DNA of 64,000 bases from Thermodesulfovibrionales bacterium (lineage in GTDB: Bacteria > Nitrospirota > Thermodesulfovibrionia > Thermodesulfovibrionales > Dissulfurispiraceae), in NCBI GenBank assembly GCA_046350935.1, contig JAXLZK010000010.1, forward strand, positions 18,569-82,568. Direction: 5' to 3'. Below the pieces are notes generated by a model that did no database searches, was not told where the DNA came from, and worked only from the letters and a program-made list of their open reading frames with translations. Numbering within the stretch: the stretch's first letter is position 1; the number at the start of each line of letters is the position of its first letter. Below are positions 6,288-30,463 of this stretch, in pieces. Position numbers and translations under genes: made by a program.

Positions 6288-6294
6288 AAAAGCC

Positions 6295-7925: not shown

Positions 7926-10032
7926 TCAGGGGAGAGCGTTATACCACAGGTCCGCCATGGATTGGTATCCTATCCCGTCGGGATGGGTGGTATCGGAGAA
8001 CTCTTCGGGGTGAGCGGAAAAATAGGAGTACATGTCGGGGCCCGGCATGGTGAGCTTGTTCGCCTTTACCAGCTCATCAATGACCTTGTTGTAGTCCCTG
8101 ATCAGGACATTTCGCGCCGCATTCTGCGGGTCCGTATACCACGCGCAGCTCGGGCAGTCGCCGTACACGACGGGGATCTTTGCGATTACCGGGTCTTTCC
8201 CGCAGCAAGGACAGCCGTGATGATGCGCTGCATATAGTCCTTGTACGAGTTCGTGTATCCCTGGCTTCCCGGTTGCAGGCCGAGCCCGCTCGGGATCTTC
8301 GATGCGGAATCGTTCGTCCCGTACATGATCAGGAAGTATTTCGAGTTAGGGTGTTTTGCGAGGACCCCCCGACGGAGCTCGCCCCGTCGTAGGAGCGGGT
8401 GGAGTCGACTCCTTCGTTGACGACCGTCTGCGGATAGCCGTGATACGCCGTCTGAAGATTATTGAGTATGGGCTCGTAGCCCCCTCCGCTGTTGCGGCCG
8501 TCATCGGAGATGTCGTCCTGTGGATAGTCGTCGGAATCTCCATAGGTAATGCTGTCCCCCATCGCCACGTAATAATCACCGATGCCCACCTGTATCTTCC
8601 TGTCATGGGTGAAGGTGCCGGGGACCTCATTGTCCGCCGCATCGAGAAGGGAGGCGTCGAGGGTTTGTTCGCTTCTGGACACCCCGGTAAAGGTTACCTC
8701 ATAGGGGTTTGTGCCGTCGGTAAGCGCCCTCTCGCCCGAAGTACCCTTGTCGAGGACGAATTTCACCTTCCACCCCCTCCAGGTTACTGGCTTCCGCCTT
8801 CGCCGTGAGAGAGGTGCTGCCCTGGAGGTCGTAGTTGTCCGGCTGGATGATGCCGACGAAGGGCTGGTTGGTAAAGACGAATTTCACCGCATCCGCGCTG
8901 AAGCTGTTTGAATAGGCATCCCCGCGGTGAGGGTGACCGTCCCCCCTTCGCCGCATCGAAGCTGTACGTCCCCAGGTAGTTCCACTGCCCCCCGTTCGTC
9001 TGCTGATTCACCCGCACCGTGGCCGACCCGCTGTCGTACTGGATCGTCACCGGCGCATTGTCGGAGCGGGGACGGATACTCCGTCCACCACATATACACC
9101 TCGTAGGCCCCCGCCTGCGGCAGGTCGGCATGCCAGGTGTAGGTGGCCGTTTCGCGGCTGTAGAGGGAGTCCTTTCCATAGGGGTTCGCTCCCGCCGACA
9201 CCGCCCAGAGTCCGGTGAAAGAGGTCCCCGCATCCCCGTTGTCCACAATGACCTCCGCGGGGGCCTGCTCCACCGTCAGGCAGTGTGCTCACCTCGGAGG
9301 ACCAGGCCCCGGTATTGTCCTGGACTTTAAAGTAAATGGTATGCATTCCCTCGGACAGGGCCGAGGTGTTCAGGGAGGCGGTGGTGCCGAGGCTCCCGTC
9401 GATGCTGGAGCGCCAGGAATAGCCGGTCACCGTCCCGTCGCTGTCCGTGCCGTGGCCCTTGAGGGTCACCGTATCCCCGACCTGCGCGGGGCTCGGAGAA
9501 ACAGAGTCGATCACCGCGGTCGGCGGCTGATTCGTCCCGCTCACCAGGACAAACTTCACTGCATCCGCACAGTAGGTCGCCGGAGAGGGCGATTCAGCCG
9601 TCAGCAGCACTGTCCCCCTGGCGGAGGCACTGAAGCTGTACGTCCCCAGGTAGTTCCACTGCCCCCGTTCGTCTGTTGGTTCACCCGCACCGTGGCCGAT
9701 CCCCCACTGTAGGTGATCTTCAACGGGGCGCTCCTGGATCGGGTGGAGGTCACCGTCCACCACGCATATACCTCGTACTTTCCCGCTTGCAGGAGACTCG
9801 CCTTCCACGTATACTTCGCCCCTCCCTGGCCGTACAACGAGTTCTTCCCATAGGGATTCGCTCCCCCCGACACCGCCCATGACCCCGTGTGCGACGTCCC
9901 CGTCCCCCCGTTGTCCACAATGACCTCAGTAGCGGCCTCTGCCAGCGCTTCCATCGTGGAAAGAAGCAACAGAACAGCGCACAGAAAAAGCAGAAAAATA
10001 TGCACTCCGACTTTCATCCTCTCCCGCTTCAT
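7926..10032 (-). pseudogene. Secreted multidomain SGNH/GDSL hydrolase, reading frame interrupted several times. Domain order: signal peptide, carbohydrate-binding-like module, PKD-like domain, second module, Ig-like domains, GDSL esterase.
   Basis: The gene is pieced together from five track ORFs in different frames.
- 9601..10137: MKRERMKVGVHIFLLFLCAVLLLLSTMEALA signal peptide, then the first module EVIVDNGGTGTSHTGSWAVS..VRVNQQTNGG.
- 9047..9880: GQWNYLGTYSF.. followed by the PKD-like stretch TVTLKGHGTDSDGTVTGYSW.
- 8884..9273 and 8784..9248: second copy of the module.
- 8329..8766: GDSL block YYVAMGDSITYG.
- 7926..8168: C-terminal SGNH part.
ATG 10032 is preceded by GGAGGGGAAAG. Confidence 0.7.
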
Positions 10033-10055
10033 CTTTCCCCTCCACGGTGCAGGCG

Positions 10056-11222
10056 TCACGACTGAATGCCTGTTATGATGCGTTCGTATTCTTCCGCAAA
10101 ACTGGCCCTGGTGTGGTGCTTCCGTGCGTAGTCCCATGCCTTCCGGGCTCGCTCCTCTCGCTCAGCGGGCCGGAGAGAGGCGATCCGGTGCAGGGCTTCC
10201 CGCAGTGCATCGGGGGAGCTTTCCCTGAGGAGAATGCCGAAGTCCTCCACATCCACCCCCGATTCGTAGCTGACCAGGGGGATAAGCCCCTCGTGCATGC
10301 AGGTGACCACGCTCCCTGCCTGCCCCTCCGAGCAGGAAGGGTAGAGAATCCCGGCGCACTTCTCCGTTATCTCCCGGAAGGCGGGGCTGTCGATCGAGAC
10401 CCATCCGACGGTATGGATATTGGGCGTAGCGTACAACTCGCGGGCGTACTCCTTCTCGAAGTCCCGCTCCTTCCCGACCGGCCCGCAGACATACAGGGTG
10501 AAATCGGGCATGCCGGCGAAGACATCGAGCACGAGGTCGAGCCCCTTGTGCACCAGCCCCCCGCTCCCCAGCCACAGGAAGCTCCTCCCGCAGGACGCGA
10601 AGTCTTTCCCCTCCGGCCAGGGATAGACCATGCAGGCAGGCACATGGGTGCGGAAGAGCGGTTTGCGGGCATACGCGTACGTCCCGAGGGTAAACTCGTT
10701 GCCCAGCACCGTGGCATAGTCCGCGTGCTCGATCGCCAGGTTGGGCTCCACGATCCGCACGCCCCCCAGCGTTACCCCCCTCCGCTGCTGCAGGGAGAGG
10801 GCGCGGCGGTAGGAGGCCCCGTTATTGAAGAGCCAGTGGGCCGTATCCAGGTTCGCCACCTTGATGCAGTCCCGGTTCAAAAGCCGGGCAATGCGAGCGA
10901 AATTGGTGCGGGCCGAGACGAAAAACGAGTAGTCCCTGTCCGGGGCATAGGTCCTGTTGCGGTAGTCGATGGCGTCCACTGCGTAGCCCAGGCGCAGGAA
11001 AGCCGCCGCGATTTCGAGCGACTCCCCGAAATGGGTATGGGTGACCGGGAGAGGCTCCCCCTCCCTCAGGAGAAAGGGGGCCATGATATACGCCAGGAGA
11101 GCCCTGCCCCTTTCGGCCCCGTGCGGACGCAGGGTCACCCGTTCCGGGCCGCCGGAGTCCGGCAGGCTCCTCCGTATCTCCACCCCGAAGCGCAGCGCAA
11201 GGCCCTTCAGGAGCGTCTTCAC
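10056..11222 (-). CDS. GT1/GT4-family glycosyltransferase
   Basis: Intact 388-aa ORF. The C-terminal GT-B donor-binding region reads FLWLGSGGLVHKGLDLVLDVF..YVCGPVG..AGILYPSCSEGQAGSVVTCMHEGLIPLVS (EX7E-like). Confidence 0.8.
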   Translation of the reverse strand: MKTLLKGLALRFGVEIRRSLPDSGGPERVTLRPHGAERGRALLAYIMAPFLLREGEPLPVTHTHFGESLEIAAAFLRLGYAVDAIDYRNRTYAPDRDYSFFVSARTNFARIARLLNRDCIKVANLDTAHWLFNNGASYRRALSLQQRRGVTLGGVRIVEPNLAIEHADYATVLGNEFTLGTYAYARKPLFRTHVPACMVYPWPEGKDFASCGRSFLWLGSGGLVHKGLDLVLDVFAGMPDFTLYVCGPVGKERDFEKEYARELYATPNIHTVGWVSIDSPAFREITEKCAGILYPSCSEGQAGSVVTCMHEGLIPLVSYESGVDVEDFGILLRESSPDALREALHRIASLRPAEREERARKAWDYARKHHTRASFAEEYERIITGIQS

Positions 11223-12070
11223 GACTCCCTCCGCACCCTCCTCACCAGCCGCGCTATCGCCTCGCGGAGGTGGTCGGCCGTCAGGGGGGCCTTCCGGGGG
11301 CCGCTCCCCGGTTCGCTGTACTGCCGCATCTTGATCATGTTCAGGGGGAAGATATGTCCGTACGAGGCATCGCCCCCGGTGCCGTCCCTGTCCTTCATGA
11401 ACGACTCTTCGTTAAACCACTCCCAGTCGCCGTACCAGGTCCAGCATCCGTTTTTCTTATAGACGTCCTTTGCCGTCCTCCCCGCCGCCTTGTTCGTCTT
11501 CAGCGTCACGTATTCGGAGGTGAACCCGGACACGTACCGCAGCATGAGCGGAAAGGACCTGTTGCTGCAGTAGTTGGAAAACCAGAGTGTATAGCCCACT
11601 TCCCCCTGGAGCTCCTTCACGGCCCTGTATACCTGGACATGCTCGGCGTGCCCGTATTCACCCCAGGGGTTATGGGTGAACACGTTCCGGCACCCTTGCA
11701 GCCGCGGCCGGAGCTGCTCCTTCAATTTCCGGTAGTTGCTGCTGTATATCTCGTGGGCGGAGGCGGCGTGGGTGATCTCGATGCCGTACGGGGTAATCAC
11801 CGGGTTGTTCCAGTCGGGGCCGTGAAAGGTCTCGGACTCGTGCAGACCGAGGCAGACGATGTTTTTTATCGGGTGCTCCTCGATGCTCTTCCTCCGCCCC
11901 GCGCCCCAGTGCGGTTTCGACGCGCACTCCAGAAAGCAGAGCACTACCGCGTCGGCCTTGCCGACAATGGAGCTGAAGAACAGCACTTCGTCGTCGGGAT
12001 GCGCGGAGACGATAACGGATTTATCGAGCATCAGCATCTGACGGGCTACGCGCGTGGAGCGGAATTTCAT
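11219..12070 (-). CDS. PIG-L/LmbE-family deacetylase
   Basis: AHPDDE motif (VIVSAHPDDEVLFFSS) lies near the N-terminus. The track ORF extends to 12154, but ATG 12070 (MKFRSTRV) has a GGAGG Shine-Dalgarno and avoids overlap with the upstream gene. Confidence 0.75.
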   Translation of the reverse strand: MKFRSTRVARQMLMLDKSVIVSAHPDDEVLFFSSIVGKADAVVLCFLECASKPHWGAGRRKSIEEHPIKNIVCLGLHESETFHGPDWNNPVITPYGIEITHAASAHEIYSSNYRKLKEQLRPRLQGCRNVFTHNPWGEYGHAEHVQVYRAVKELQGEVGYTLWFSNYCSNRSFPLMLRYVSGFTSEYVTLKTNKAAGRTAKDVYKKNGCWTWYGDWEWFNEESFMKDRDGTGGDASYGHIFPLNMIKMRQYSEPGSGPRKAPLTADHLREAIARLVRRVRRES

Positions 12071-12138
12071 TGTCGGCCTCCCGGGAAACGGCACCTTTCT
12101 TCCTGTCCCCCTCCCCTTCTTTTTCCTCACTCCGTGCT

Positions 12139-13212
12139 TCAGGCTCCCCCCCATCTCTTTACCACCCTCTTCAGGGGCTCCGGCATGCTTCTTCTCAACC
12201 GCGAAGGAAGGGATTCCCTCCTGATGACCACATTCCTGTTGAAACGCTCCGTGACGCCGAAAGAGAGCTTATACTCCTCCCTGCCCGCCCCGAAATCGAA
12301 GACACGGAACCCGTTCTCAACGGCATACCGGATGCAATACCCGACCATGACCCTCCCCGGCGAGAGCTTTGCAAAAGCTTCATTAAACCCCATGATATAT
12401 CCGGTGAAAGTGCCTGTCCTGCGGTCCAGGAACGCCGCGGCCCCTGCCAGGGGCTCCTTGCCGTTCCACAGGACCGGGAGCAGCAGGCTGTTCCCCTCAA
12501 AGCAGCGCCGCAGGAGAGTCCGGATACGGGGCAGCTCGTCTGCCCTCTCCCTCCCCCACCGCGCCTTCCAGAGGGTCAGGAGGGTCCCGATATGCTCTTC
12601 GAGCGTCCCCTTTTCCGCATGGGTGACACGGAAGTCCCTGAGACCCTCCACTTTCCGCATATGGTATTTCAGGTCCTTCCGCGTAGCCGTGCTGAGAAAA
12701 TCCCGGAGGTACTGCTCCCAGGTATCGGGCAGAAGGATGCGGGGACAGGGGACACGGCCGACCTCATGTACGCGGAAGAGTCCGCCGGGGAAATGGACAA
12801 GGAAGGAGTCGAGCCGCCGGTCCGCCACGTGCCAGAGGGCGAAAGCATTCCACCGCATCTTCTTCTGCACAAAACGGGCAAAAGTTGCGAGGTCGCTTTC
12901 AGCGTACCCCGGTGCGCAGACGAATCCCGTGTTGTCCGCCCAGGGCTCCCCCCCGATCACCAGCTTGCGGAAGACCTTGAGCCGTCCTCTCCGGACAGCG
13001 TGCATGCCCAGGGGCAGAAAGGAGCGGTAGGAGGAAGCTCCCCGCTGCCGCAGGGCCAGCACGCTCCAGGAATACGGAGTAATCTCCATCCATCCCCGCT
13101 GCCATTCCCACGAGGCAAATATCGTCGCCTCCGTGTCCGACGCATATACTTCGCTCCAGTTTTTTCGTATCTTCTCGAAATCCTCGCTGCGGGTGATGAT
13201 ATCGACCTGCAT
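12139..13212 (-). CDS. FemAB/CelD-like GNAT acyltransferase (PEP-CTERM-locus FemAB-related type), copy 1
   Basis: Intact ORF reading MQVDIITRSEDFEKIRKNWSEVYASDTEATIFASWEWQRGWME...GYIMGFNEAFAKLSPGRVMVGYCIRYAVENGFRVFDFGAGREEYKLSFG. This is the typical CelD/BioF2-like acetyltransferase C-terminus. The start is taken at ATG 13212. Confidence 0.7.
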   Translation of the reverse strand: MQVDIITRSEDFEKIRKNWSEVYASDTEATIFASWEWQRGWMEITPYSWSVLALRQRGASSYRSFLPLGMHAVRRGRLKVFRKLVIGGEPWADNTGFVCAPGYAESDLATFARFVQKKMRWNAFALWHVADRRLDSFLVHFPGGLFRVHEVGRVPCPRILLPDTWEQYLRDFLSTATRKDLKYHMRKVEGLRDFRVTHAEKGTLEEHIGTLLTLWKARWGRERADELPRIRTLLRRCFEGNSLLLPVLWNGKEPLAGAAAFLDRRTGTFTGYIMGFNEAFAKLSPGRVMVGYCIRYAVENGFRVFDFGAGREEYKLSFGVTERFNRNVVIRRESLPSRLRRSMPEPLKRVVKRWGGA

Positions 13213-13334
13213 GGTTTCCGGCCCCCTCGTATGGCAGCTTGTTCTTATCCGATATATTCCGCGCACCCTGCGCCCTTCGTACAGGGGCGGAAGAAGAAAG
13301 AGAATACGATGGAAAGGGGATCAGCACTTCTGTT

Positions 13335-14401
13335 TCACCGCATTACCAGCTTCCGGATCACCCGTTTCAGGGGGGACGGGACGCTGTTTTTCATCCTGAC
13401 GAAGATAGGCTCCCTCTTGATGAAGAGGTTCCTGTTCGTGCGCTCCCGGGTGCCAAACGAATATTTGTATTTCTCGCCCCCCGCCCCGAAATCGTAGATG
13501 CGGAAGCCGTTTTCGATGGCATGCCGGATATGGAAACCCGTCATGACATTTCCGGGGGACAAGGAGGCGAAGGCATGATTGAATCCGGTGGTATACCCGC
13601 TGAAGACCCCCTGCTTCCGGTCGGTAAACGCCGCCTCCGCCGCGAAAGGGGCATTCCCCTCCCAGAGGGTGGTCAGGCAGAGCGTCCCGGCTGCCGCGCA
13701 CCTGCTGAAGAGCGTACGGTACACGTTCAGGACAGCTTCCGGCGCAGCCCCCCAGCGCGCCTGCCAGAGCGCCAGAAGAGCATCGATCTGTTGTTCGAGA
13801 TTGTCCTCCCGCGTATGCACCGCCCGGAACCCGCTGAGGCGCTCCGCTTTTTTCATGTAGTATTTCAGGTGCTTCCTCGTGCACGGGCCCAGGAACTCCC
13901 GGAGGTATCTCTCCCACGAATCGGGCAGAAGGACATGGGGACAGACGGTCCCCGCCACCTCTCTCGTGTAGAAACTCTCCGGGGAGAAGCGGGACAGAAA
14001 GAGGTCCAGGCGGCGATCGGACACGTTCCGCATATCGAAGAGGTCCCACCGCAGGTGATGCTGCATGAACACGGCGAAAGCGGGGAGTGCGCGCTGCGCA
14101 CTGTCCGGGGCGCAGACGAAACCTGTATTGTCCGACCAGGGCATCCCGCCGATCACCAGCTGCCGGATCTCTCCCCCCATTCCTGACGGTCTCGCCCCCG
14201 AGGGGCAGGAAGGCGACATAGGGCGACCGTTCCGTTTCGCGGGCCGCCAGTACGAACCTCTCGTACGGCGCACTCTCCAGCCACCCGCGCATCCACTCCC
14301 AGGAGACGAACACCGTCGCCTCCGGGTCGGCGGGCGCCGCGCTCCAGGCCTCCGCGCACCCCCTCGATCTGTTCACTGTTCCTGAGGACGCTGATGCGCA
14401 T
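13335..14401 (-). pseudogene. FemAB/CelD-like GNAT acyltransferase, tandem paralog (copy 2), at least two frameshifts
   Basis: Colinear with copy 1 across three frames.
- MRISVLRNSEQIEG from ATG 14401, with a GGAGGAG SD.
- CAEAWSAAPADPEATVFVSWEWMRGWLESAPY..AFLPLGGETVRNGG in ORF 13321..14376.
- EIRQLVIGGMPWSDNTGFVCAP...YDFGAGGEKYKYSFG in ORF 13335..14273.
The frame changes fall at G/C homopolymer runs near 14367 and 14170. Confidence 0.7.
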
Positions 14402-15749
14402 TATATGCTCTCCTCCTGTCGTTTTCCTTCTCCCACAGGATGCGCCGCGGTGCTCCACTTCAGCAGGGGCCTGATAACCCCCGGCATGGACCCTGTCCAG
14501 TCCCCCCGCGCGGAATCTCCCTCCAAGCTGTCCGCCACCCTGGAAGGAAACCGCATCGGACGCCGTAAACTGGCAGCTCCGCGGGTTCAGGGTGAGCAGG
14601 GCCGCCTCCACGAAGAGCATGCCTTCCGCGAGGAGGTTCCCGGGTATCCGGGCGCTGCTGGTGTAGACCCCTTCGGGCCGTGGCCTGCCCCGCCATGCGG
14701 GGTCGTTGTCTATCGTCGTGAAAAGGAGACCCCCTCCTCGGTGTCGATATTGAAGTGGGGCGCCAGGACATACCCCGGTTTGAGCACCTCGTATTCCATT
14801 TCGAGGCTGACGGGCCTCCGGATGTCGAGGACCTCCCTGACCCGCCCGTCCTCCCCCCTGACCCGCACCGCGTTGAGGCGGACGATGTCGCCCGAGGGGC
14901 CTGCGCCGGATCGGGCCAGACCCGCTCCGCGATGGTGCTGTCCGCAGGGTTCAGGTAGGCGTTGACCACTTTGTCCGCCGGCCCGTCCTGTACAACCACG
15001 CCCGCATCGAGGAGAATAGCCCGCCTGCAGAGGCGGGTGATCGCCCTCATATTGTGCAGGGAGGGCGCGCGCGCGCAGAGACGAGGAGAGAGACGGTTCG
15101 TCCGTGCTGCCCCACGTCGTGCATCTTGTTCAGGCATTTCTTCTGGAAGTTCGTGTCCCCCACCGCCAGGACCTCGTCCACGATGAGGATCTCCGGTTCG
15201 AGGTGCGCGGCCACGGCAAAGGCGAGCCGCAGGTACATGCCGCTTGAATAGTGCTTCACCGGGGTGTCGATGAACTTTTCCACTTCGGCGAAGGAAACTA
15301 TTTCGTCGAATTTCCGTTCTATTTCGGTCCTTCTCATCCCGAGGATGGCGCCGTTCAGGTAGATGTTCTCGCGTCCGGTCAGCTGCGGGTGGAAGCCGGT
15401 GCCGACTTCGAGCAGGGAGCCCACCCTGCCGTGGATCTCCGCGCTTCCCTTCGTCGGCTCCACGATACGGGAGAGCACCTTGAGAAGGGTGCTTTTTCCC
15501 GCCCCGTTGCGCCCGGGATGATCCCCACCACCTCGCCCCTTGATGTCGAAGGAAACATCTGGAGCGCTCAGAACTTTTCGTTCAGCCCGTCCACCGCCGC
15601 GCGGCCCTGCCGGCCAGCAGGTGGGCCGCCTTAAGGAAGGGATTTGAACGAGTCGATCAGCGTCTCCTGCAGGGTCGGTAGGTCGCGCCGTTTCCCTATG
15701 TGGTATTCCTCTCGAGCCCCTCCACCCGGATGGCAATGGAGCTGTCCAT
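14401..15749 (-). pseudogene. wzt: Polysaccharide ABC exporter ATP-binding protein (Wzt/TagH type with C-terminal glycan-binding-like domain), at least four frameshifts
   Basis: - The gene starts at MDSSIAIRVEGL (ATG 15749).
- The ABC core lies in ORF 15047..15976: GRNGAGKSTLLKVLSRI (Walker A), HYSSGMYLRLAFAVA (signature) and ILIVDEVLAVGD (Walker B).
- The C-terminal domain is scattered over three frames: ..AYLNPADSTIAERVWPDP.., ..LFVEAALLTLNPRSCQFTASDAVSFQ.. and ..DSLEGDSARGDWTGSMPGVIRPLLKW.
- The TAA stop overlaps the next ATG (TAATG at 14401). Confidence 0.75.
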
Positions 15750-15750
15750 G

Positions 15751-16571
15751 CTACACCACGTCCGCGAAGGTCTCTCGAACCCGTACGGCACAGGCCGCTG
15801 ACGAGCAGGAGAAGGGCCGCCAGCGAGGACCCGATGAGCATGGGGCCAGGCGAGGTATCGGCGCCCAGCAGCGCCCACCGGAAGCCCTCCCACACCGCCA
15901 TGGGGTTGATCCCGTACACGGTCCTCGAGGCTCGAGAGCCTGGCCGGATAGGTGACCGGGCGTCGCGTAGAACCACAACTGCATCAGGAAACCGGTGGCA
16001 TGCCCCACGTCCTGGAACTGCACGTTCATGGCGATATCAGAGGGAGAGCGCGAGAGCGCTGACAAAGGCCAGCGCCATGAGAAACGGCAGCCATACCATG
16101 TTGGCGGTTGGGACGATGCCGTAGAACAGCATCATGCAGACCAGCGTGGCGAATGCCAGGACGAAGTCCACCACCCCCGACAGGACCGCCGCGATCGGGA
16201 TCGCGAGGCGGGGAAAGTAGACCTTCCTGATAAGGTTGGAGTTCCCCACCAGGTTGTGCGCCGCCCTCCCCCAGCCCTCCGGCGAAAAGGTCCAGGGCAC
16301 CAGGGCCGCATAGCTGAAGATGGGGTACGGGACGCCGTCGGAGGGCATCTTCACCACCGCTCCGAAGATGACGCTGAAGACCACCATCGTGAAGAAGGGC
16401 TGCACCACCGCCCAGGCGGCCCCAGCACCGTCTGTTTCCGCGCACCTTGATATCGCGCCACACAAGAAAATAGAGCAGCTCGCGGTACTCCAGCAGGTCG
16501 CGCAAGTTGAGGGGAACCCATCCCCCGCGAAGGCTGGATGCGGATGACCGACGCTCCGGGGTGGTAGACAT
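15751..16571 (-). pseudogene. wzm: Polysaccharide ABC exporter permease (ABC-2/Wzm/TagG type), at least three frameshifts
   Basis: - The gene starts at MSTTPERR..LLEYRELLYFLVWRDIKVR, in ORF 16026..16856.
- It continues with VQPFFTMVVFSVIFG..GVPYPIFSYAALVPWTFF..IRKVYFPRLAIPIAAVLSGVVDFVLAF, in ORF 16037..16927.
- The C-terminus is ..MQLWFYATP...RVRETFADVV, in ORF 15751..16065.
- ATG 16571 is preceded by GGAGGCGGGG. Confidence 0.7.
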
Positions 16572-16649
16572 CCCCGCCTCCTTCTTTCCTTCTGCGTAAA
16601 GAGCGCTCTCTCCTTTTTTCTCTTTTCGGGCCGCCGCGGGAGTCGCCGC

Positions 16650-17341
16650 TCCTTGGCGTTGTCGGCCGACGTAGCGGCCTCTCGGCACGATGTCGGTGAG
16701 CTCCCGCGGTTCTCCTCCATGCGGGCATTGACGACACTGCGGCGACATCTTCGGGCTGCATAAGCCCGCCTCTGCGGCCGGTAGGGGCGCCCCTGCCGTG
16801 GATGGCGGCCTGCATGAGAGTGCGGCTGGTCCCTGCCCCGGGTAGACGCTGAGCACCCGGACCCCGTCAATTCACACCCGCAGGCTGTCGGCAATGGCCT
16901 TGAGGCGCGTGCTTGGACGCCACGCATACTGGCTTACCGCCCGCGCTCCAAACGCTCAGATTGATGAAGACGATCTGGCCGCGGCCGGCTTTGAGAAGGG
17001 GCAGCGGCACGGGTCAGCAGGTAGGGGCGATGAGCCCGGTCGAACTCTTCAACGGGCGAATCTTCGAGGCCTGGAGCACTTCGGCAGTGGACAAGGACAA
17101 GGCGCGCGTCCGGTACGATGCTCCGCCCGAGCTCCGCGATCCCACTCCCCGCAGGACAGGTCGGTCTGATAGCAGTGTACAGCGGCAGCTCCAGGCCCGG
17201 TAAGCTCAACGCAGTCTCCCCAGCGCTGTCCTCCCGGCAGGTAGGCGCCATGCCCTCTTCAGCGAGGGAGAGGGCAACCGCCCTGCCGATCCCCGGCTCG
17301 CCGGTGACCTGGCGACATCCTTGAGCTGGCACCGGCGCCAT
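16650..17341 (-). pseudogene. Short-chain dehydrogenase/reductase (SDR), heavily frameshifted; boundaries approximate
   Basis: - The Gly-rich NAD motif is VTGEPGIGRAVALSLAEEG, in ORF 16934..17437.
- SDR-like pieces appear in other frames: ..AGRGQIVFIN.., ..ASKHA..IADSLRVE.. and ..VRVLSVYPG.
- The C-terminal pieces are ..LMQPEDVAAV.. and ..EVTDIVPRP.
No clean stop could be placed: all three frames stay open between about 16571 and 16700. Confidence 0.45.
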
Positions 17342-17344
17342 TCG

Positions 17345-18664
17345 TGCCTCCTGGCCGCCAGGGTCGCCCTTGCGGTCGAAGAAATTGATCTCCGCGACTC
17401 CCGGGAGGGAAAAGGCACCGTCCGAGAGATTCAGCACCCATAGAGGGCGAGCTCCTGCGCCCTTTTCTCCCCCTGGCCGCCGGGGTAGAGCCCCCTCCTT
17501 CCCAGCTGCGGCTCGCCCCGGGGAGAGAGGTTTTCGTATTTGCCGTCCCCCTCCAGCACCTGCAGAAGGGAGGCGCAGAGGGCGAAAGACCCGGCAAGGG
17601 CCCCGCCTTCACCAGGTCCAGGTTGTCCGCCGAGGTGTGGTATTCAGGATAGCACCCGTGCGGCGTCCTCATCAGGCAGCCCACCGGCAGGCTGATTCCG
17701 GGAGAACAGTATTGCCGCTCGTCATAGCCCACCGGACTGAAGTCCACCACCGTGTACGGCTCTCCCGAATCCTTCAGCGCCCGCAGCATCGTTCCGTCGA
17801 TCTCGTCGCCCCGCCGGCTCCTCTTATAGGTGAACCCTCCCGCATCGCCCACCCCGGCGAGCACGAGGCCGTGCCGTATCCTGGAGAGGCTCTTCTCGTT
17901 CCGGGAGAGCCAGGCGAGGGGGCTGATGGTGCCGGGAAGGAACAGGAACCGGTAGGAATAGCGGAGAGGCGCCCTACCGGGATGCCCGGCGGAATGCCCG
18001 GCGAGCTGTTCGGCAAGAAGCGCGGCGACGGCGATGCCGGACAGGTTGTCGTTACAGAGGGACGGGTGGCAGACATGGCACGAGAAGACGATCTCCAGGG
18101 GCTCCCGCCCCTGATGAAACACTCTCCGTAGGTGAGGGAGCCCTCGTCCAGCGAGGCGTCGATGCGGACCTCGTATTCACCTCCTCGTCAAGCTCCAGGA
18201 AGCGGGCGTGGCTCATGCAGAAGCCCCAGTTCCGCCGGTAGTAGGAGGTGCGGTAGGGGATCCAGTCCGGGTGCTCCGGCAGGGTGAAGAGGTGCTCCTT
18301 CAGTTCCGCGAGGAGACCTTCGCGTGCACCGGCGCGCTGTAGCCCACGACGTGGAGGTTCGGACTCCCTGAAGTCCACCACCCTCTCGCCCGCCGCGTTC
18401 TTGACATAGGCATCCCGCACGTTCCATTCCGGGGGCACCGTCCAGTCGAACACCTTCGTGCCCGACGGGACCTCGTGCAGCTCGAGAGGGATGCGTTCGG
18501 CGATACGGGCGAGGGTCCCGCGCACCCCGTCGCCGGTGATACTGCGGCAGAAGGTACAGCGAGGCCGCGAAGCGGTACAGCTCTTCGCCGGCGGTCCCTC
18601 GACAGGACGGCATGCTCTTTTCAGATAGGTCGTTTCCATGGGTATGAACCTCCCGGGGGGCCAT
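17345..18664 (-). pseudogene. Aminopeptidase-like DUF4910/DUF2172-type protein common in glycan loci, frameshifted; boundaries approximate
   Basis: - ..GEELYRFAASLY.. is in ORF 18188..18664.
- CRSITGDGVRGTLARIAERIPLELHEVPSGTKVFDWTVPPEWNVRDAYV is in ORF 18052..18888.
- IVFSCHVCHPSLCNDNLSGIAVAALLAEQL..YSYRFLFLPGTISPLAWL..GLVLAGVGDAGGFTYKRSRRG..YPEYHTSADNLDLV is in ORF 17259..18122.
- The C-terminal ..GEPQLGRRGLYP.. and VLNLSDGAFSL pieces are in further frames. Confidence 0.55.
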
Positions 18665-18728
18665 GCCGCCGCTCCCCGAATGCTGCGCGGACGGAGGAAA
18701 AGAGAGCGAGGGGAGAGAGTGCCGGGGG

Positions 18729-20560: not shown

Positions 20561-21660
20561 TTTTCGACTCCTGTAAGGGTATTAGGTACACACGCGTACG
20601 CATTATGCCTCCTCGCAGTGTGCGTCCATTCCAGGTTTTCGTTCAGCAGCCCGTCGCTCCGCAGCGATCGCAGGACCATGAGCCGCCGAAGCGGGAGCTG
20701 CGGAAATTGTCGTCCCTGAAGCGCATGGCATCCAGCCCTCCCGCAGCCCGCCGATGACGGAGATCAGGTCCTCCTGAGGCTGAAAGCTGGGCGCCAGCTC
20801 CCCTGAAAAGCCCGAAATCCACCCGGTACGAGCGCTTGTCCGGCGGAGCGTCCCCGTTGACGGATATTTCCACCCCGGGGACCACCTGCGCCACCGCCTC
20901 GGCAAGCTCACGCACCCGGTAGTTCCACGCATCACCCCTACATTCACCGCCACGAACGCACCCCTGCTGCCGGGGCCTCTCCGGACGGCCCAATCGATGG
21001 CGCGCGCCATGTCCCGCACGGGGATCAGGGGCCTCCAGGGCGTCCCGTCGCTCAGGGATCGTGATCTTCCGGGAGAGGCGATGGCGCCCGCCACAAAGTC
21101 GTTGAGCACCAGATCCAGACGCAGCCTCTCGCTCATTCCGCAGGCGGCAAAGCGCAGTGGCTCGTTACCGTAAAAGGAGCTGTCGGCGACTCCCTCCAGC
21201 TCTTTTCCGCATACACCTTGACTGCGCATAGGCGGTAAGGGGTGGGAGGGGGGAATCCTCTTCGCGGACTATCGTCCGCACATCCGTACATGCTGCAGCT
21301 CGACGCGTAGACGAACGCTTTCACCCCCGCCTCTTTCGCGCTTTTCGCCAGGGCCACGCTGGTTCGATAGTTGATATCGAGCGTGACCTTCAAAAGTGCT
21401 GCCCATGGGATCGTCTGAAATGGCGGCCAGGTGAACGAGGGCGTCCACCCCTTCGAGGAGACCCTCTCCGGCCTTTCGCACATCCCCGAAATGCTTGGAC
21501 GTCCACCCGACACTCGGGGAGAATGCAGGCGCCGGGTGAGACAGCTCGCGAAGAAGCCGGTATCGAGGCCGATCAGGGCGGCGCCTGGATAGGAGGAGCG
21601 GAGGCGCTCCACCACGCACGGCCCGACATACCCCATGTTGCCGGTGATCAGTATTTTCAT
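20557..21660 (-). pseudogene. NAD-dependent sugar epimerase/dehydratase (extended SDR), at least four frameshifts
   Basis: - The N-terminus is MKILITGNMGYVGPCVVERL, from ATG 21660 with an AAAGGAG SD.
- ..DALVHLAAISDDPMG.. lies in another frame.
- ..DINYRTSVALAKSAKEAGVKAFVYASSCSMYG.. follows.
- ..LRFAACGMSERLRLDLVLNDFV.. is in ORF 20603..21229.
- The predicted stop overlaps the next ATG (ATGA at 20557-20560). Confidence 0.65.
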
Positions 21661-21758: not shown

Positions 21759-22831
21759 CAGGAGGTTCTTACAAAAAGCGGGCTATTGCAGGGGCGGCCG
21801 TCAGTCCCGGCGACTGATGCCCACCATGTTGACGAACCCGGGCAGATCCTCACTGATAAGGAAGTCCCGGAAGCCTTCCCCCTTGCCTGGAGTTTCGGCC
21901 TGATGCCGGACATATCGGGGACGATGTCCTCCCTGCGGAGAGAGGGCAGAAACTTGACTGCGGAGGCATAGAACGCGTCCGCCGTCCTCCCCGACGACCC
22001 GGTAGTCCTCCACCCTTTCGGTGTAGACGGCATCCGGGCCGAGCCGCATGCGCCCGGCCAGGTCGAGGGTGAGATGCACGCCCAGCCCCGCATGGTCCTC
22101 TTCAGGCACCGGGTAGACCAGCCTGCCGACCATGCCCTCGTTCGCGCCGGCGATGCTGAAATAATCGCCTTTGCAGTAACGCAGCAGGTAGTGTTTGCCC
22201 AGCATGCGGGCCACCGCGTCGGACTGCAGGCCCGCAGCATTGACGACTCTCTCGGAGGTAAAGACGAAATGCTCTCCCTCCGCATTGACGGTGGTGATCC
22301 GGTAGCTCCCGGACACCCTCTCAATCCCGATCACGAGGGTCCCACGCGATCTCGGCGCCCCGCCTTTGCCGTGTACAGGAAATAGTCCATGAGGGCATGG
22401 GCGCTCAGGATGCCCGTTTCCGGTGAACAGAGTGCGGCGAAGGCCTTGATATTCGGCTCCAGCGCCCGCACCTCCTTCCTCCAGCAGGGAGACGGACTCC
22501 ACCCCGTTCCGAGCGTTCCTGGCAGCTGCTCGATCTTCGCCCCCTCGCCCTCGGAGGCGGCGATGAGCAGCTTCCTGCCCTCTCCGGGTGGGGAAGGTTG
22601 TTCTTCCTGCAGATTTCATACAGCATCTCCTCCTCAACGTGCAGAGCCGCGCCTTCAGCGAGCCGAGGATAGTAGAGCCCCGCGTGGATCACCTCGCTGT
22701 TCCGTGAGCTGATCCTCGCCGTGGGATTCGTTTTTCTCGAGGATGTAGAGGGCCGACTTTCCGTCGGCCAGCGCAGCGGCCACGGCGAGCCCCACCACTC
22801 CCGCCCCGATGACCGTTATTTCGGCATCCAT
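21759..22831 (-). pseudogene. FAD-dependent oxidoreductase (DAO / L-2-hydroxyglutarate-oxidase-like), at least four frameshifts
   Basis: - The dinucleotide-binding N-terminus is MDAEITVIGAGVVGLAVAAALADGKSALYILEKN, from ATG 22831 with a GGAGG SD.
- SEVIHAGLYYP is in ORF 22405..22692.
- Later segments sit in ORFs 21801..22637 and 21269..22324.
- The predicted C-terminus is ..SPGLTAAPAIARFL, with a stop at 21759. Confidence 0.6.
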
Positions 22832-22878: not shown

Positions 22879-23653
22879 CTACCATACCTTCCACGGAGGC
22901 GATCCCGAATTCCAGAGCTCCAGGAGATAGACCTTGTCGCTCAGGTGTCCATGGACTGCCAGAAGCCGTAATGTTTGTAGGCGGACAGCATTCCTCCGTC
23001 CCGCGCCAGCCTCGTCAGGCTCTGCTCCCATATCGTCATATCATCGTCGATGTAGTCGATAACGGCCGGTTCGAGGACGAAAAGCCCCCAAGTTGATCCA
23101 CGCCCTGTCTCCCCTTCGGCTTCTCCCGGAAGCTGGTGATCCTGTTCTCTCCCGCTCTCAGGCTGATGGCGCCGAAACGGCCGGGCGGCCGGACGGCGGT
23201 CAGGGTAGCCAGGGTGTCCTGGAGCCGGTGGAACTCCACCAGCTGCCTGATATCGATGTCGCAGACTCCATCCCCGTAGGTGAAGCAGAACGTCTCGCCT
23301 CCGATATAGTCCTCACCCTTTTGAGGCGTCCGCCGGTCATGGTCTTCTCCCCGGTGTCCACCAGCAGAGTCACTTTCCATGTCTCCGCACCGTTCTGGTG
23401 CACGGTGAATTTATTCCGCTTCATATCGAAGGTGATATCGACATATGGAGGAAGTAGTCGGAAAAGTATTGCTTGATCATGTGCCCCTTGTGGCCGCAGC
23501 AGATAACGAACTCGTGGAGCCCGTGCGCATAGTAAATCCTCATGATATGCCACAGGATAGGCCTTCCTCCTATTTCCACCATGGTTTCGGACGGGACGCC
23601 GTCTCTTCGGAGAGACGGGTCCCAAGGCCCCCTGCGAGAATCACCACCTTCAT
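22879..23653 (-). pseudogene. rfbF: Glucose-1-phosphate cytidylyltransferase, at least three frameshifts
   Basis: - MKVVILAGGLGTRLSEET.SRPKP starts at ATG 23653 with a GAAGGAGG SD.
- ..GRPILWHIMRIYYAHGLHEFVICCGHKGHMIKQYF.. lies in a shifted frame.
- ..FCFTYGDGVCDIDIRQLVEFHRLQDTLATLTAVRPPGRFG.. is in ORF 23036..23380.
- The C-terminal piece is ..YGFWQSMDT..RDKVYL.ELW. Confidence 0.75.
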
Positions 23654-24138
23654 GACAGGACCTCCTTCGGGAAGAAAAAGGAAGGAAAGTGGGAAATGAG
23701 AGAGAAAAGACTCAGAAGCAGAAGATTCCTCTGCCTGCTCCTCATCAGGCACCTGCCTTTGCTCTTCGGACTTACTTCTCAGTTCTAAACTTTTTTTCAA
23801 TGTTCGCCTTTCTCGTCACAGAGGCGTAACTGGAAGGCACTTTCCTCAGAGCGCGCAGCAGAATGCCCGGGCCGGACCGGATATCCCAAAACGGCTCATA
23901 CCAGCCGCCGGCAGGTTGAAAACCGTCTGCGGGGAGCTATGTCTGCTTCTTTTTTTCTGTCTCTTTTCCGCCGACTGCGCAATGACAGGAGAGCGTCCAA
24001 CTGGAGCGCTCTTCCTGAGTCCTCTTTCTGCCTTACTCCCGCAAGCGGAGCGCTGCCGTCACCCGCTCACTCTGTCGATCGCGGCCATACCGTTCCGGAC
24101 ACGGAATGACGTGAACCGGAATGGTTCATTTTTGCCGA

Positions 24139-24589
24139 CTATTCCGTCGTTGAACAGGAACTACACCGTCTCTTCGTTTTGACGAGAACGCCCCCTCGGC
24201 CCCCTTCAGCGGCCCCCTCTACCCTTGACCCGCGCGCCCTCCCGGAGGTGAGGGTAGATGTCGAGCTCCGATCCGCTTTCGACCAGGATCCTGAGGGACC
24301 GACCTCCTCAGGGGGCACCGGGCTTGGGACACCCGGCTTTGCGGAGAGGAGCGCGACGGCGCCCCGCGTTTTCAGCACGGCCACGAAGTCTTCCGACAGG
24401 GGGATATGCACGAAGCAACATCCCGGGAAGAGGGGAGCATCCACCATCTTCCTCCCGTCCTTCCACTGCCTGCACTGCCGGAGGGCCGGGAGATAGGTGT
24501 CGACCCTTCCTCAGCAGCTCGTCCCGGGTGACGAACTCATGCCTCGACCTCACGTGCAGCGCGTACCAGTGCATTTCTTCCGCCGTCAT
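24139..24589 (-). pseudogene. NusG-paralog (RfaH/UpxY-like) transcription antiterminator, at least two or three frameshifts
   Basis: - The NGN-domain start is MTAEEMHWYALHVRSRHEFVTRDELLRKG, in ORF 24308..24589.
- It continues with VDTYLPALRQCRQWKDGRKMVDAPLFPGCCFVHIPLSEDFVAVLKTRGAV, in ORF 24139..24447.
- A KOW-like ..GAEGVLVK.. region is garbled by G-run frame changes.
The 3' end is uncertain. Confidence 0.6.
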
Positions 24590-24609
24590 CGGTGCCCTGT
24601 CCCTTTTCC

Positions 24610-25777: not shown

Positions 25778-25781
25778 TGCT

Positions 25782-26630: not shown

Positions 26631-26698
26631 TCTCTCTCTCCTGTTGTGGTAGTGCGGTGAAAAGACATGCCACGGCGTATCCTGCCCCGCCTCCTCCC

Positions 26699-28248
26699 CT
26701 AGAAGATGCTCTTCAGGTGCCCCGGCAGGCTGACGACGGCGCTGATGAAGTCGTCCACGTAGGAGACGCCCAGCAGCTCCAGGGTGAACACCGCGAGGAT
26801 GCCCGCCATATACGCCCCCGCAAACGTGTAGAGCCGTTTGTCCTTCTTCCGCTGCTCCGCGGTTTCTTCGGGGTTCTGGATGCTCGGGATGACGGCAATC
26901 ACCGGGACCCCGAAGGATTTGAGGAGTCGACCGTTTTCACCGACCTGTCCACGGAGTCGAGCAGGACGACGAGGCCGAAGCCCCCCGCCAGCCCGGCAAG
27001 GATGCCGAACAGCATGATCTTCACCCTGTCGGGGCTCACCGGCTTCATCGGCAGCACCGCGGGGTCCACGATCCGGAAGGTGGAGGCCTTGTCCTGCACC
27101 TCCATCTGCTTCGACACCTCCGCCTGGCCGAGGCGGGCCACGAGCTCCTCATAGATGTTCTTCGTGGTAGCCCGCGCCATCTCGAGGTCGGTAAGGCTCT
27201 TCTTTTCGGCAGGCATGCTCCGCAGATAGGTCTTCTTCGATTCCATGAGCCTCCTGAGCTGTTCGTCCTTTGCCGTAAGGGCCGCCAGCTCGAGGTCTGC
27301 CCTCGTCATCTCCTCCCGCAACTGCTGGAACACCGGGTTCAGCAGCGCCACTTCGCCGTCGGCTGCGCCCGCATCGCTTGCCAACGGGGCCTGCCCGCTC
27401 GCCATCTGGCCCTTCAGGGTCTCTATTTCCGTCCTGACCCTGATCACTTCCGGGTAGTTCGGCGTATAGGTCAGCAGCAGGTCGGTCAGCTTCCTCTGGA
27501 GCGTCAGGACCCTCTCGCCGGGGTCGCCCGACCCTTTCCCCATGATGGCGGCGGTGTAGGGCCTCTCCCCTTCATCTGCCTGAGCATCGTCTTTTTCCGC
27601 GCTTCCAGCTCCCGCCTCTTCATCCTGACCCTTTCGAGCCCTTCCTCCGCCGTTTTTATCTCCTCAACCACCCTGCGGTCGTCCAGCGCGACGAAGATGC
27701 CCTTCTCCTTCCGGAACCTGATGATTTCGTCGTCCGCCCTGTCGAGCTTTTCCTTGAAGAATTTAATCTGCTCCGTGAGGAAGCGGCTCGCGCCGTAGGT
27801 CTCCTCCCTCTTCTCCGACACGTTCTCCTCGATGTACCGCCGCACCAGGGCGTTGACGTAGTCCCGGGCGAGCTGGGGTCCGCATTCCGGAGGAGACGAT
27901 GAAGAGGCCGTTCTCGCTCTTCATCGTGATGTCGGTGTTTTTCTGGAAGTCGGAGACGACTTTTTCCACCTCGGACTGCTTCTTCCTGTTCACCGGAAGG
28001 CCGAGGTCGTCCGCCACCTTCAGGAGGAGGTTCCTGCTGCTCATGGTGTAGGACAGCACCTTGAGCTTCTCCTCAAGGGAGGGGGTGACGGCGATGCCCT
28101 TGATGATCGTGTTGATCATGCTCCGCTCGATGAAGACCGTGCATTTCGCCTCATACTCCTTGGGGAGGAAGTAGCTGGTCAGCACCACCAGGGTGATGAG
28201 GAGAGCACGGAAAGGATGAACACGTACTTCCGCTTCGCTATGAGCTGC
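26699..28248 (-). pseudogene. Polysaccharide chain-length determinant (Wzz/PCP family, PEP-CTERM-locus type), at least four frameshifts
   Basis: - The gene starts at ATG 28248 (MQLIAKRKYVFIL..).
- YFLPKEYEAKCTVFIERSMINTIIKG.. is in ORF 27763..28188.
- The coiled-coil middle is in ORFs 27504..27845 and 26899..27543 (..FRIVDPAVLPMKPVSPDRVKIMLFGILAGLAGGFGLVVLLD).
- The terminal TM segment is in ORF 26699..26902. Confidence 0.7.
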
Positions 28249-28289
28249 ATATACCTTTGAGGTCCACTCCCGACGGTTCCATGCCCCTC

Positions 28290-29087
28290 CTAAAAGATCC
28301 CTTCCTTGACCACGATGTAATCACCGGGCTGAAGCTTCAGGTTCTCGCTCAGCTTTCCGTCCTGGAGCAGGTCCTTCACCTTCACCGTCCGGGCGACCTT
28401 CTGTCCGTCCTTCTGCGTGAAGAGGACGACGTCGTTCTGCTTGGCGAATTCGGAGAACCACCCGGCTGCCAGGATCGCGTCCATTATGGTGATCCCGTCC
28501 CTGTATTCGATGAACTTTGGGCTGTTTACCGCGCCGGCGACATAGACGTTCCGGGAGTCCAGCTCGGGGATGAAGAGGACGTCGCTCGATTCGATCACCA
28601 TATCCTCGGAGACGTCGCCCTCGATAAAGAGCCGGTAGAGGTCCTCCTTCACCTTCTTGCCGCTCCGGAGCACGTACGCCCGGCGCAGGTCGGCGAGCCG
28701 CACCTCCCCGATCTGGCAGAGAAGCTGCAGCAGCGTAGTCCTGCGGTTGAGCTCGTAGACGCCGGGCTTTACCCTCCGCCGAAAACGTACACCTTGCTGT
28801 TGGTAATGCCTTCCACGATCACCGTCACCACAGGGTTACGCACCAGGTCCTTCAGCTTGGCGGTGAGCTGCTTCTGCAGCTCCTGGGGCCAGGCCGCTCG
28901 CGGGCACTTCCCCCAGCGCGGGGATCGTGATCTTCCCGTCCGGCCTCACCTTGACCGAAAGCGAGAGGTCCTTCACCCCCCAGACGGAGATAAAGAGCGT
29001 GTCGCCGTCCCCTATCACGTACTCTCCCGCAAAAGCGGCGGCGGGTGCCAGGAGTCCCAGGAGCAAAAGAATCGCGAGTGCTTTCAT
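28290..29087 (-). pseudogene. Polysaccharide export protein (Wza/Poly_export + SLBB), at least two frameshifts
   Basis: - [61 protein letters not shown] starts at ATG 29087.
- The middle part lies in another frame.
- The C-terminal 137 aa are in ORF 28290..28703 (..VLFIPELDSRNVYVAGAVNSP..LQPGDYIVVKEGIF).
- The ATGA overlap at 29084-29087 couples it to the upstream gene. Confidence 0.75.
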
Positions 29088-30463
29088 ACGTCCTCCTCTA
29101 TCTCCCCCCGTTTGAGCAGGACCACCTTTACCGTCTCCAGGATGATCAGGAGGTCGAGGAAGAGAGAGATGTTTTTGATGTAAAAAAGATCGTAGCGGAG
29201 CTTTTCGATCGTATCCTCCACCGATGCCCCGTAGGGATACTTGATCTGCGCCCACCCGGTGATGCCCGGTTTTACCGTATGCCTCTCCGAATAGTAGGGG
29301 ATGACCCTCTTCAACTTTTCCACGAACTCGGGCCTCTCGGGCCGCGGCCCCACAAAGGACATATCCCCCTGAGCACGTTGTAGAGCTGCGGCAGCTCATC
29401 GAAGCGGTATTTCCGCATGAACCTGCCCACCGCCGTCACGCGCGGGTCGTCCTTCTTCGCCCAGACCGCGCCCGTTCCGCTCTCGGCGTCCCGGCGCATC
29501 GTCCTGAACTTGTACAGGACGAAGTTCCTCTCCCCTGCCCCACCCTGAGCTGACGGAACAGCACCGGCGAGGAAGGGGACTCCATCTTGATGATCAGGGC
29601 GGCGAGCGGGATCACCGGAAGCGCCAGGGTGAGTCCGGCAAGCGCCAGGGGGATGTCGAACGCTCTTTATAGAGCCGCTTGAAGGCGGTCAGCCGGAACC
29701 CGTCCGAAAAGATGAACCAACTGGGGGTTATGTTCTCGATCAGCAGCTTCCCGGTTATCTGCTCGTAGAAGGAGGGTGCGTCCACCACGTCGATGCCGCT
29801 CAGCTTGCAGGCAAGCACATCGCGCAGGGGGAAGACGCCCCGCCTCTCGGACAGCGAGATGACGATTTTATGAGCCTTTTCCTTCTTTGCGGTCTCGATG
29901 AGCCCCCCTCCCGTCTCCCACCACCGTATGGGGAGGCACGAACAGCGGCTCGCGGGGGCAGTTGACGTACCCGGCGAGCACGTAATGGTGGTTCGTCGTC
30001 GCCAGGACTCCCCGATCTGTTTCGCCAAGGGGCCGGTGCCGAGGATGATGACCCTCCGCACAAACCCGGTGAGGGAGAGGAACGCCTTGTGCCCCGCGTG
30101 CCAGAGGGGAAGGAGGAGGCCGGACAGCGCAAGGGATGCGGCGAGCATTCCCCTGTCGAACCGGAAAAAAGGCATAAGGTAATAGAATGAGGAGAGAATG
30201 AAGACGGAAAGCACCAGCGAGATGAAGACCCTGATGAAGATCTCCTTCCGGGTGGTGTTCCCCTCCTGGCTGTACAGCCCGACGAAAAAGAGCGAAAAAA
30301 GGACGACCAGCACGAAGAAGGAAACCCGCGCCGCATTGGATGCCAGCAGGCTCCCCGCATTCGCCGGTTTCCCGGCGGACAGGTACAGCACCACGGAGGC
30401 GGATGCCGCCGAAAGAAAGGCGTCCCCCGAAAGGAGCATCGCGATGAGGAGCCGCACGCTCAT
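29084..30463 (-). pseudogene. Undecaprenyl-phosphate sugar phosphotransferase (bacterial sugar transferase, EpsB/WbaP-like priming enzyme), at least three frameshifts
   Basis: - The N-terminal TM region and CoA-binding-like linker are in ORF 29612..30463.
- ..[34 protein letters not shown] is in ORF 29311..29499.
- [60 protein letters not shown] is in ORF 29084..29362. Confidence 0.8.

Follow-up and report, generated by a model that had tools for sequence, protein, structure and literature searches.

The frameshifts clustered in the exopolysaccharide locus described here are, on the sequence comparisons given below, very probably errors in the deposited consensus rather than lesions in the organism's genes, which are probably intact. 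The window analysed is a stretch of 64,000 nucleotides from contig JAXLZK010000010.1 of a Thermodesulfovibrionales bacterium. Its genome is a scaffolded metagenome-assembled genome (MAG) that is mostly accurate, with about 2% of it (~60 kb) lying in sharply bounded patches having an indel error of ~0.3-1.5% per base, and the largest patch set of the assembly lies over the XrtA/PEP-CTERM exopolysaccharide locus. A preliminary description of this DNA had left two explanations open, real decay of the locus and a failure of consensus calling or polishing. The latter is supported; the former is strongly opposed by the constraint retained in the broken genes, by the open frames of conspecific sequence and by the presence of patches elsewhere.

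Measured against intact orthologues in two genomes of the same genus (G001 and G002), the region from 7.9 to 30.5 kb carries approximately 125 frame-breaking indels over 17 minus-strand genes, ranging from one in rfbC to 24 in the DUF4910/SDR gene. A codon-model Viterbi frame track gave around 90 same-strand frame switches between positions 7930 and 30473 of the window, with long unbroken segments on both flanks and a genome background of 0.65 switches/kb; it replaced a genome-wide scan by ORF coverage, a metric dropped because spurious long ORFs in GC-rich DNA, as well as low-GC islands, distorted it. When intact G002 ORFs were used as tblastn queries, most genes in the region were split over two to four frames. 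The density of non-3n indels, counted in nucleotide alignments of the window to G002 and G001, is 3/kb at 7.9-10.5 kb, 0.8/kb at 9.8-13.6 kb (where the events relative to G002 lie at gene edges), 6-12/kb at 13.6-23.8 kb, 3-4/kb at 24.6-30.5 kb and zero in prsT.

Most of the preliminary reading of these breaks stands. Each of the 17 genes that it named as needing frame changes has at least one frame-breaking indel, their identities being confirmed via intact orthologues, and comparison with orthologous loci of related genomes, which it suggested as a check, found the G001 and G002 genes intact and the window copies broken. It correctly described prsT as uninterrupted, the other flanking genes likewise having no frame-breaking indels, and correctly reasoned that uniformly random error would not have spared it. 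Its range of 7.9-30.5 kb fits the 17 broken genes but not three genes inside it, at 10056-13266, which are intact and fall in a 3.5-kb island (9.7-13.3 kb) with no frame-breaking indels. The internal control to which it drew attention is exact: CCACTG-C6-GTTC is found at 8982-8997 and CCACTG-C5-GTTC at 9656-9670, the second site being one base longer in both relatives. The rfbC break, on the other hand, had been placed outside any homopolymer, but at 19303 a short run of G is one base longer here (G4) than in a conspecific contig (G3).

Gene identities rest on Pfam and NCBIfam matches of intact orthologues, and all of the genes lie on the minus strand. A secreted GDSL/SGNH esterase with Golvesin_C and PKD modules (7929-10032) carries light patch 1, with about eight frame-breaking indels from 8193 to 9666 according to the tblastn frames and the indel list. 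The clean island comprises a 388-aa hypothetical protein, a PIG-L-family deacetylase and the first copy of an Acetyltransf_6 (CelD/FemAB-like) gene (10056-13266), all giving single-frame tblastn hits. The heavy patch begins on its left at the second Acetyltransf_6 copy (13335-14372), which has one or two frame breaks (14172, 14354) close to its 5' end. Within this patch are an ABC transporter ATP-binding protein resembling Wzt (14403-15750; about 11 frame-breaking indels relative to G001; ABC_tran in the orthologues), a Wzm-like ABC-2 permease (15754-16619; 10) and a gene combining DUF4910/DUF2172, HTH_47 and a short-chain dehydrogenase (16689-18840; 24), which is a single 743-aa ORF in G002. 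They are followed by the dTDP-4-dehydrorhamnose 3,5-epimerase family gene rfbC (18732-19328), broken near its 5' end by the single extra G, a sugar C-methyltransferase with Methyltransf_13/14 (19337-20592; 11), an NAD-dependent epimerase/dehydratase (20624-21660; 14), a DAO-type FAD-dependent oxidoreductase (21775-22831; 11) and an rfbF-like sugar-phosphate nucleotidyltransferase (22882-23810; 11), at which the heavy patch ends.

Light patch 2 starts at a UpxY-family NusG paralogue (24193-24590; three indels) and continues through the XrtA/PEP-CTERM system-associated ATPase (TIGR03015; 24613-25781; three single- or double-base deletions), the XrtA-associated tyrosine autokinase (TIGR03018; 25785-26671; three deletions) and the XrtA system polysaccharide chain-length determinant (TIGR03007; 26703-28285; six deletions). 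In the exopolysaccharide export protein (TIGR03027; 28293-29189) there are two deletions, C6 to C4 at 28889 and G4 to G3 at 28775, and in the priming glycosyltransferase (TIGR03013; 29101-30498) five homopolymer indels, the last at 30014. The clean right flank begins with the PrsT TPR lipoprotein (TIGR02917; 30463-33381), intact and without a single indel relative to G002 over 2744 bp; an exact-protein look-up of PrsT with an ATG start gave no match. The syntenic G002 orthologues of PrsT and of the five XrtA-system genes all score above the curated NCBIfam cut-offs, and the window copies share 67-97% amino-acid identity with them per tblastn segment. On the strength of these six co-occurring TIGR families the locus is predicted to be an ordinary XrtA/PEP-CTERM exopolysaccharide cluster of a Nitrospirota bacterium of the Nitrobium/Dissulfurispira group.

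The indels fall into two regimes with sharp edges. In the heavy patch, at 14.2-23.8 kb, they are random and occur at ~10/kb: there are 78, comprising 48 deletions and 30 insertions, of which only 6% are in runs of four or more. In light patch 2, at 24.2-30.0 kb, the density is ~3.5/kb and almost all are one-nucleotide deletions in G/C runs, with 22 deletions and one insertion among 23 indels and 57% in runs of four or more, compared to ~8% of all bases lying in such runs. The affected homopolymers are 3-7 nt long, at two to six sites per gene. Flanking genes have an equal density of runs (4.4-5.4 runs of five or more per kb) and yet carry no indels. The indels of the window are private to it relative to G001, G002, L020 and the conspecific contigs.

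Conspecific comparisons were made with three short-read contigs (L019, L021 and L022) from an independent run, SRR26348421, which together span only ~6 kb of the 22.5-kb region and ~4 kb of its broken part. Across the clean island, at window positions 9881-12099, L019 is 99.865% identical, with three mismatches and no gaps over 2219 bp. In the broken stretches indels rather than substitutions dominate the differences: L021 aligns to 17937-19926 with 97.8% identity, 23 gap openings and 13 mismatches, and L022 to 28284-30246 with 98.9% identity, nine gap openings (eight in homopolymer runs) and 11 mismatches. L021 contains three open ORFs, being open across 17937-18640 in the DUF4910/SDR gene, and the ORFs of L022 are open too, so that over these ~4 kb no lesions shared by other members of the species were found. 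Substitutions separating the three contigs from the window amount to 0.14-0.65%; the contigs come from a different strain or sample and give no proof for the exact strain. A search with the G001 chain-length determinant recovered only intact copies from other species, at ~86% nucleotide identity to the window, and none from the same species.

Once indels are removed, the broken genes show the same constraint as their intact neighbours. Mismatches at the three codon positions are ~0.10/0.08/0.28 in the former and ~0.12/0.09/0.33 in the latter, while the ratios of nonsynonymous to synonymous codons are 0.3-1.0 (one gene 1.45) and 0.6-0.9, respectively. Nonsense substitutions are essentially absent: in 13 genes there are ~105 frame-breaking indels against seven apparent stops. 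Five of these are no more than ten columns from an indel, another is the true stop, and the remaining one is upstream of a start. The signature of decay, a mixture of nonsense and frameshift changes with similar divergence at all codon positions, was sought in the broken genes and not found.

The preliminary description had tied the frameshifts to glycan genes. This association proves incidental, as the assembly has at least six further patches of the identical kind over unrelated genes, six of them verified against G002 or G001. One, at ~0.5-11.1 kb of contig C35, has 10-18 indels/kb over genes for Lon, a HisKA kinase, a sigma-54 regulator, HhH-GPD, Na/H-TrkA, Usp and TauE proteins. Others are at ~3-7.5 kb and ~108 kb of C1, at 22.8-24.8 kb of C37 and, in C31, at 27468-29153, where 2 kb of clean sequence precede the onset at 27468, and at 36.2-37.5 kb. 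Where the patches fall is independent of gene function: besides Lon protease, the genes hit include those for a histidine kinase, sigma-54 regulators, TauE exporters and Usp proteins, among others. The uneven spread of errors comes from the uneven quality of the sequence and not from what the genes do. For positions 35279-37200 of C31 the assembly contains a second contig, C55, with 96.7% identity and 44 gap positions. Relative to G002, non-3n indels are absent from C55 but number 8-10 per 0.6 kb in the C31 copy. Within-genome repeats, a possible cause of failed polishing, were ruled out, none of the patches being repeated except for the C31/C55 duplicate.

These results bear directly on whether the locus has recently been pseudogenised, with indels accumulating under relaxed selection on capsule or exopolysaccharide. 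In favour of this, the deposited sequence does contain the frame breaks, they cluster on a single functional locus within the window, and other bacteria are known to adapt by losing surface-glycan loci. Even so, such decay is highly improbable: it would have to yield ~105-125 indels with essentially no nonsense substitutions and unchanged signatures of purifying selection, in a locus whose conspecific contigs are intact, while Lon protease, kinases, regulators and transporters were equally damaged in other patches. Neither the sharp patch edges nor the clean duplicate of one patch in the same assembly fits it, and 10-18 indels/kb without matching substitutions has no known biological precedent.

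Population phase variation, in which the G/C homopolymers at 24.2-30.0 and 8.2-9.7 kb would be hypermutable contingency tracts caught by the consensus at off-length alleles, gains some appeal from the concentration of light patch 2 indels in mostly G/C runs, from run-length differences making up eight of nine gap openings relative to L022 and from glycan genes being classic phase-variable targets. We nevertheless consider it very unlikely, since the tracts are short, scattered through the genes and several per gene, where a single long 5' tract would be expected. The 22 deletions among 23 changes indicate a calling bias and not a two-way switch; the neighbouring heavy patch has random non-homopolymer indels, and flanking genes of equal run density have none. 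The contingency-gene hallmark of one long tract per gene, typically 8 nt or more, varying both ways, was not found in the broken genes. A partial version, in which short G/C runs at 24.2-30.0 kb, in the export and priming genes of the XrtA system, are heterogeneous in length in the natural population and the consensus was frozen off, is scarcely more than conceivable; if true, it would mean diffuse multi-site on/off variation of exopolysaccharide in an uncultured Nitrospirota bacterium. An artefact of a different kind, in which a short-read-only assembler collapsed strains or species that occur together into a single chimeric sequence with indels where variants differ, is unlikely. The small contigs holding the locus in G001, G002 and a Logan assembly suggest a tangled assembly graph, and C55 and C31 are two variants of one locus, both binned. 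De Bruijn graph assemblers, however, output real k-mer paths; they would not normally introduce novel indels of 1-2 nt by the dozen per kb, or favour deletion in homopolymers by 22:1. That the indels are private to the window also argues against collapse.

For the favoured reading, consensus error, the comparisons show the indel pattern, its patchiness, the intact conspecific sequence and the lack of a signature of decay; which technology and which step of the assembly were at fault, we infer. Stretches that could not be assembled from short reads may have been bridged or filled with error-prone sequence of long-read-like profile and left unpolished; well-covered unpolished consensus would then give the homopolymer-deletion patches and low-coverage consensus the random-indel patches. 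In relatives the same locus is fragmented into contigs of 2-15 kb. The scaffolds contain N runs of 10 and 100, a better fit to a short-read scaffolder than to a pure long-read assembler, and a hybrid or gap-fill step is therefore a guess.

The frameshifts themselves hold no new biology, and the main value of the result is as a quality warning on an assembly that stands for its species in the GTDB-based collection of genomes used for the searches. Several regulators, the Lon protease and the whole XrtA/PEP-CTERM locus fall in the ~60 kb riddled with indels. In automated annotation such genes will be split or labelled pseudogenes, and comparative studies could wrongly infer loss of exopolysaccharide production. 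Readings of genes in the window at 7.9-9.7 kb and 14.2-30.0 kb, such as the esterase modules, the deoxysugar pathway and the NusG-paralogue leader, should use intact orthologues and not the deposited sequence.

In gene content the locus has nothing unusual when compared with the XrtA/PEP-CTERM exopolysaccharide locus, reportedly described by Haft et al. in 2006: the same six families are present, and attached to them here is a CDP/dTDP-sugar, C-methyltransferase and Wzm/Wzt module under a UpxY-type antiterminator. Truly pseudogenised surface-glycan loci exist, the O-antigen cluster of Yersinia pestis being an example, and they share with the window frameshifted adjacent polysaccharide genes beside intact neighbours. 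In such loci, however, lesions are limited to one or a few in each gene, include nonsense changes and IS insertions and are shared by conspecific strains, and constraint is relaxed; none of this is seen here. The closer likeness is to long-read assemblies, whose typical error is a residual miscount of homopolymer length that fragments genes and remains wherever polishing with short reads is unsuccessful (PMC8812927, PMC9262707, PMC12007338). As in the assemblies treated in the Polypolish, ONT R9/R10 metagenome and Kastor papers, respectively, errors are dominated by indels and biased to homopolymer deletions, ORFs are broken yet protein similarity is kept, and errors survive where polishing did not reach. 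The difference from those cases is that here the errors are limited to ~2% of an otherwise clean scaffolded MAG and come in two densities.

The reading frame was tracked with a codon-usage model trained on the long ORFs of G000, the assembly in which the window occupies C10:18569-82568, and run as a seven-state Viterbi tracker. This places approximately 90 same-strand frame switches in window 7930-30473, the genome-wide background being 0.65 per kb, while long single-frame segments occupy the flanks (1-7929 and 30474-40777) and an internal island (10061-13213). The syntenic locus has intact ORFs in two genomes of the same genus (G001 and G002), one of the same family (G003) and a further public contig (L020), at 72-90% nucleotide identity to the window, and in tblastn searches with the G002 ORFs most genes fall over two to four frames. 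Pairwise nucleotide alignments of the window with relatives give densities of indels that are not multiples of three (non-3n) of about 3 per kb at 7.9-10.5 kb, 0.8 at 9.8-13.6 kb, 6-12 at 13.6-23.8 kb, 3-4 at 24.6-30.5 kb and zero in prsT (2744 bp). Frame-breaking indels total about 125, ranging from one (rfbC) to 24 (DUF4910/SDR) per gene. The clustering of frameshifts in the glycan genes at 7926-30463 put forward in the preliminary description is thus confirmed by frame track, tblastn and alignments alike, except that three genes inside this range are intact. The C6/C5 motif pair in the esterase gene is exactly as claimed there, both relatives having the longer run at the second site, but the rfbC break, supposed to lie outside a homopolymer, proves to be a short G run lengthened by one base at 19303.

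Profile matches on the intact orthologs show the gene names proposed earlier to be right. Scoring above the NCBIfam curated cut-offs are PrsT (TIGR02917), the priming glycosyltransferase (TIGR03013), the exporter (TIGR03027), the chain-length determinant (TIGR03007), the tyrosine autokinase (TIGR03018), the ATPase (TIGR03015) and a UpxY-family NusG paralog. Pfam matches in the downstream module are to a nucleotidyltransferase, an FAD oxidoreductase, an epimerase/dehydratase, a sugar C-methyltransferase, an RfbC-family epimerase, DUF4910 with HTH_47 and SDR, an ABC-2 permease, an ABC ATPase, two Acetyltransf_6 paralogs, a PIG-L deacetylase and a GDSL esterase with Golvesin_C and PKD modules. 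Judged by these matches, the locus appears to be an ordinary XrtA/PEP-CTERM exopolysaccharide locus. The window copy of the esterase (7929-10032) has two modules and the G002 ortholog (G002:C36, 1-3360), truncated at its contig start, four Golvesin_C matches; module number either varies between species or has been collapsed in one assembly. Outside the locus, a low-GC island at 51668-59485 (42-51%, genome 59%) has little native-like coding signal, contains an int-alpA RNA motif (53140-53203) and adjoins at its end a tRNA gene (59202-59274, minus strand); an integrated mobile element is the probable explanation.

Within the locus the indels fall into two sharply delimited regimes. The heavy patch (14.2-23.8 kb) holds 78, comprising 48 deletions and 30 insertions. 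These do not favour homopolymers: runs of four or more, which make up about 8% of bases, contain 6% of them. By comparison, 22 of the 23 indels in the lighter patch at 24.2-30.0 kb are deletions and 57% are in such runs, while flanking genes of equal run density have none. The switch, at 23841-24192, falls in the non-coding leader that precedes the sugar-nucleotide genes, and a G002 contig break (C5 start/C21 end) coincides with it.

The choice between decay of the locus and consensus or polishing failure had been left open. When the G002 ORFs set the frame of the alignments, codon-position mismatch rates and nonsynonymous/synonymous codon ratios are alike in broken and intact genes: at positions 1/2/3 the broken chain-length determinant shows 0.096/0.065/0.268 and the intact PrsT 0.115/0.119/0.334. 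Seven in-frame stops appear, of which one is the true stop, one precedes a start and the other five fall no more than 10 alignment columns from an indel. By codon positions and in-frame stops in these alignments, therefore, the broken genes bear no evolutionary signature of decay; bacterial pseudogenes are not known to gather more than 100 frameshifts without nonsense or neutral substitutions alongside. Exact-protein look-up also reached three same-species short-read Logan contigs (run SRR26348421), belonging to a strain or sample that differs slightly from the window (0.14-0.65% substitutions). Over the clean island (9881-12099), L019 is 99.865% identical without gaps. L021, filled entirely by three open ORFs, aligns to 17937-19926 at 97.8% with 23 gap openings and 13 mismatches. 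L022, whose open ORFs include a complete 266-aa exporter, aligns to 28284-30246 at 98.9% with nine gap openings, eight of them run-length changes (e.g. G5/G4, G6/G5, C6/C4, A4/A3). Over the stretches these contigs cover, about 6 kb of the region, the conspecific DNA is intact.

A genome-wide frame-switch scan, followed by alignment to G002/G001, revealed six further G000 patches with 6-22 non-3n indels per kb between stretches of clean sequence: C35 (about 0.5-11.1 kb), C1 (about 3-7.5 kb and about 108 kb), C37 (22.8-24.8 kb) and C31 (27468-29153 and 36.2-37.5 kb). Orthologs were scanned for C35 and the first C1 patch, where the genes hit encode a Lon protease, a HAMP/HisKA kinase, two sigma-54 response regulators, an HhH-GPD glycosylase, a Na/H-TrkA transporter, Usp proteins and TauE exporters; such patches are thus no peculiarity of glycan genes. 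One locus is present twice in G000: contig C55 (2.8 kb) corresponds to C31:35279-37200, at 96.7% identity with 44 gap positions, and to C31:30318-31065, and lacks a 4.2-kb segment of C31. Compared with G002, C55 has no non-3n indels and the C31 copy 8-10 per 0.6 kb. Whether strain variant or redundant contig retained in the bin, C55 is an internal control for an artefact within G000. Paralogous cassettes of Usp, TauE-family exporter and sigma-54 response regulator occupy C35 (~5-10 kb) and C1 (~3-7.5 kb), at <75% nucleotide identity to each other. C35 also carries, at 11896-12405, a ~100-250 nt repeat with dozens of copies across G002 contigs (78-96% identity), some at contig ends, that resembles a MITE/REP-type element family.

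Sequence quality in G000 is therefore patchy, the poor patches being indel-dominated and partly homopolymer-biased. Because five independent lines agree (no decay signature, intact conspecifics, two regimes, other patches and the C55 control), we consider the frame breaks very probably artefactual: real in the deposited sequence but not a biological feature. With 3.37 Mb in 55 scaffolds at 59% GC, N runs of 100 (43) and of 10 (26), and 98% marker-gene completeness, G000 is a scaffolded metagenome-assembled genome, placed by the names of close protein relatives in the Candidatus Nitrobium/Dissulfurispira group of Nitrospirota (PMC8906906).

As to how the indels arose, the locus is fragmented in relatives (2.5-15 kb contigs in G001 and G002, 2-kb contigs in the Logan assembly), and one C31 patch is located where two G002 contigs end. 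We lean towards a route in which error-prone reads bridged regions that short reads could not assemble and the bridged stretches were then left unpolished; the main alternative route is strain collapse by a short-read assembler. The patches are a warning for annotation or comparison of this genome. The error profile fits the residual errors published for long reads (PMC8812927, PMC9262707, PMC12007338).
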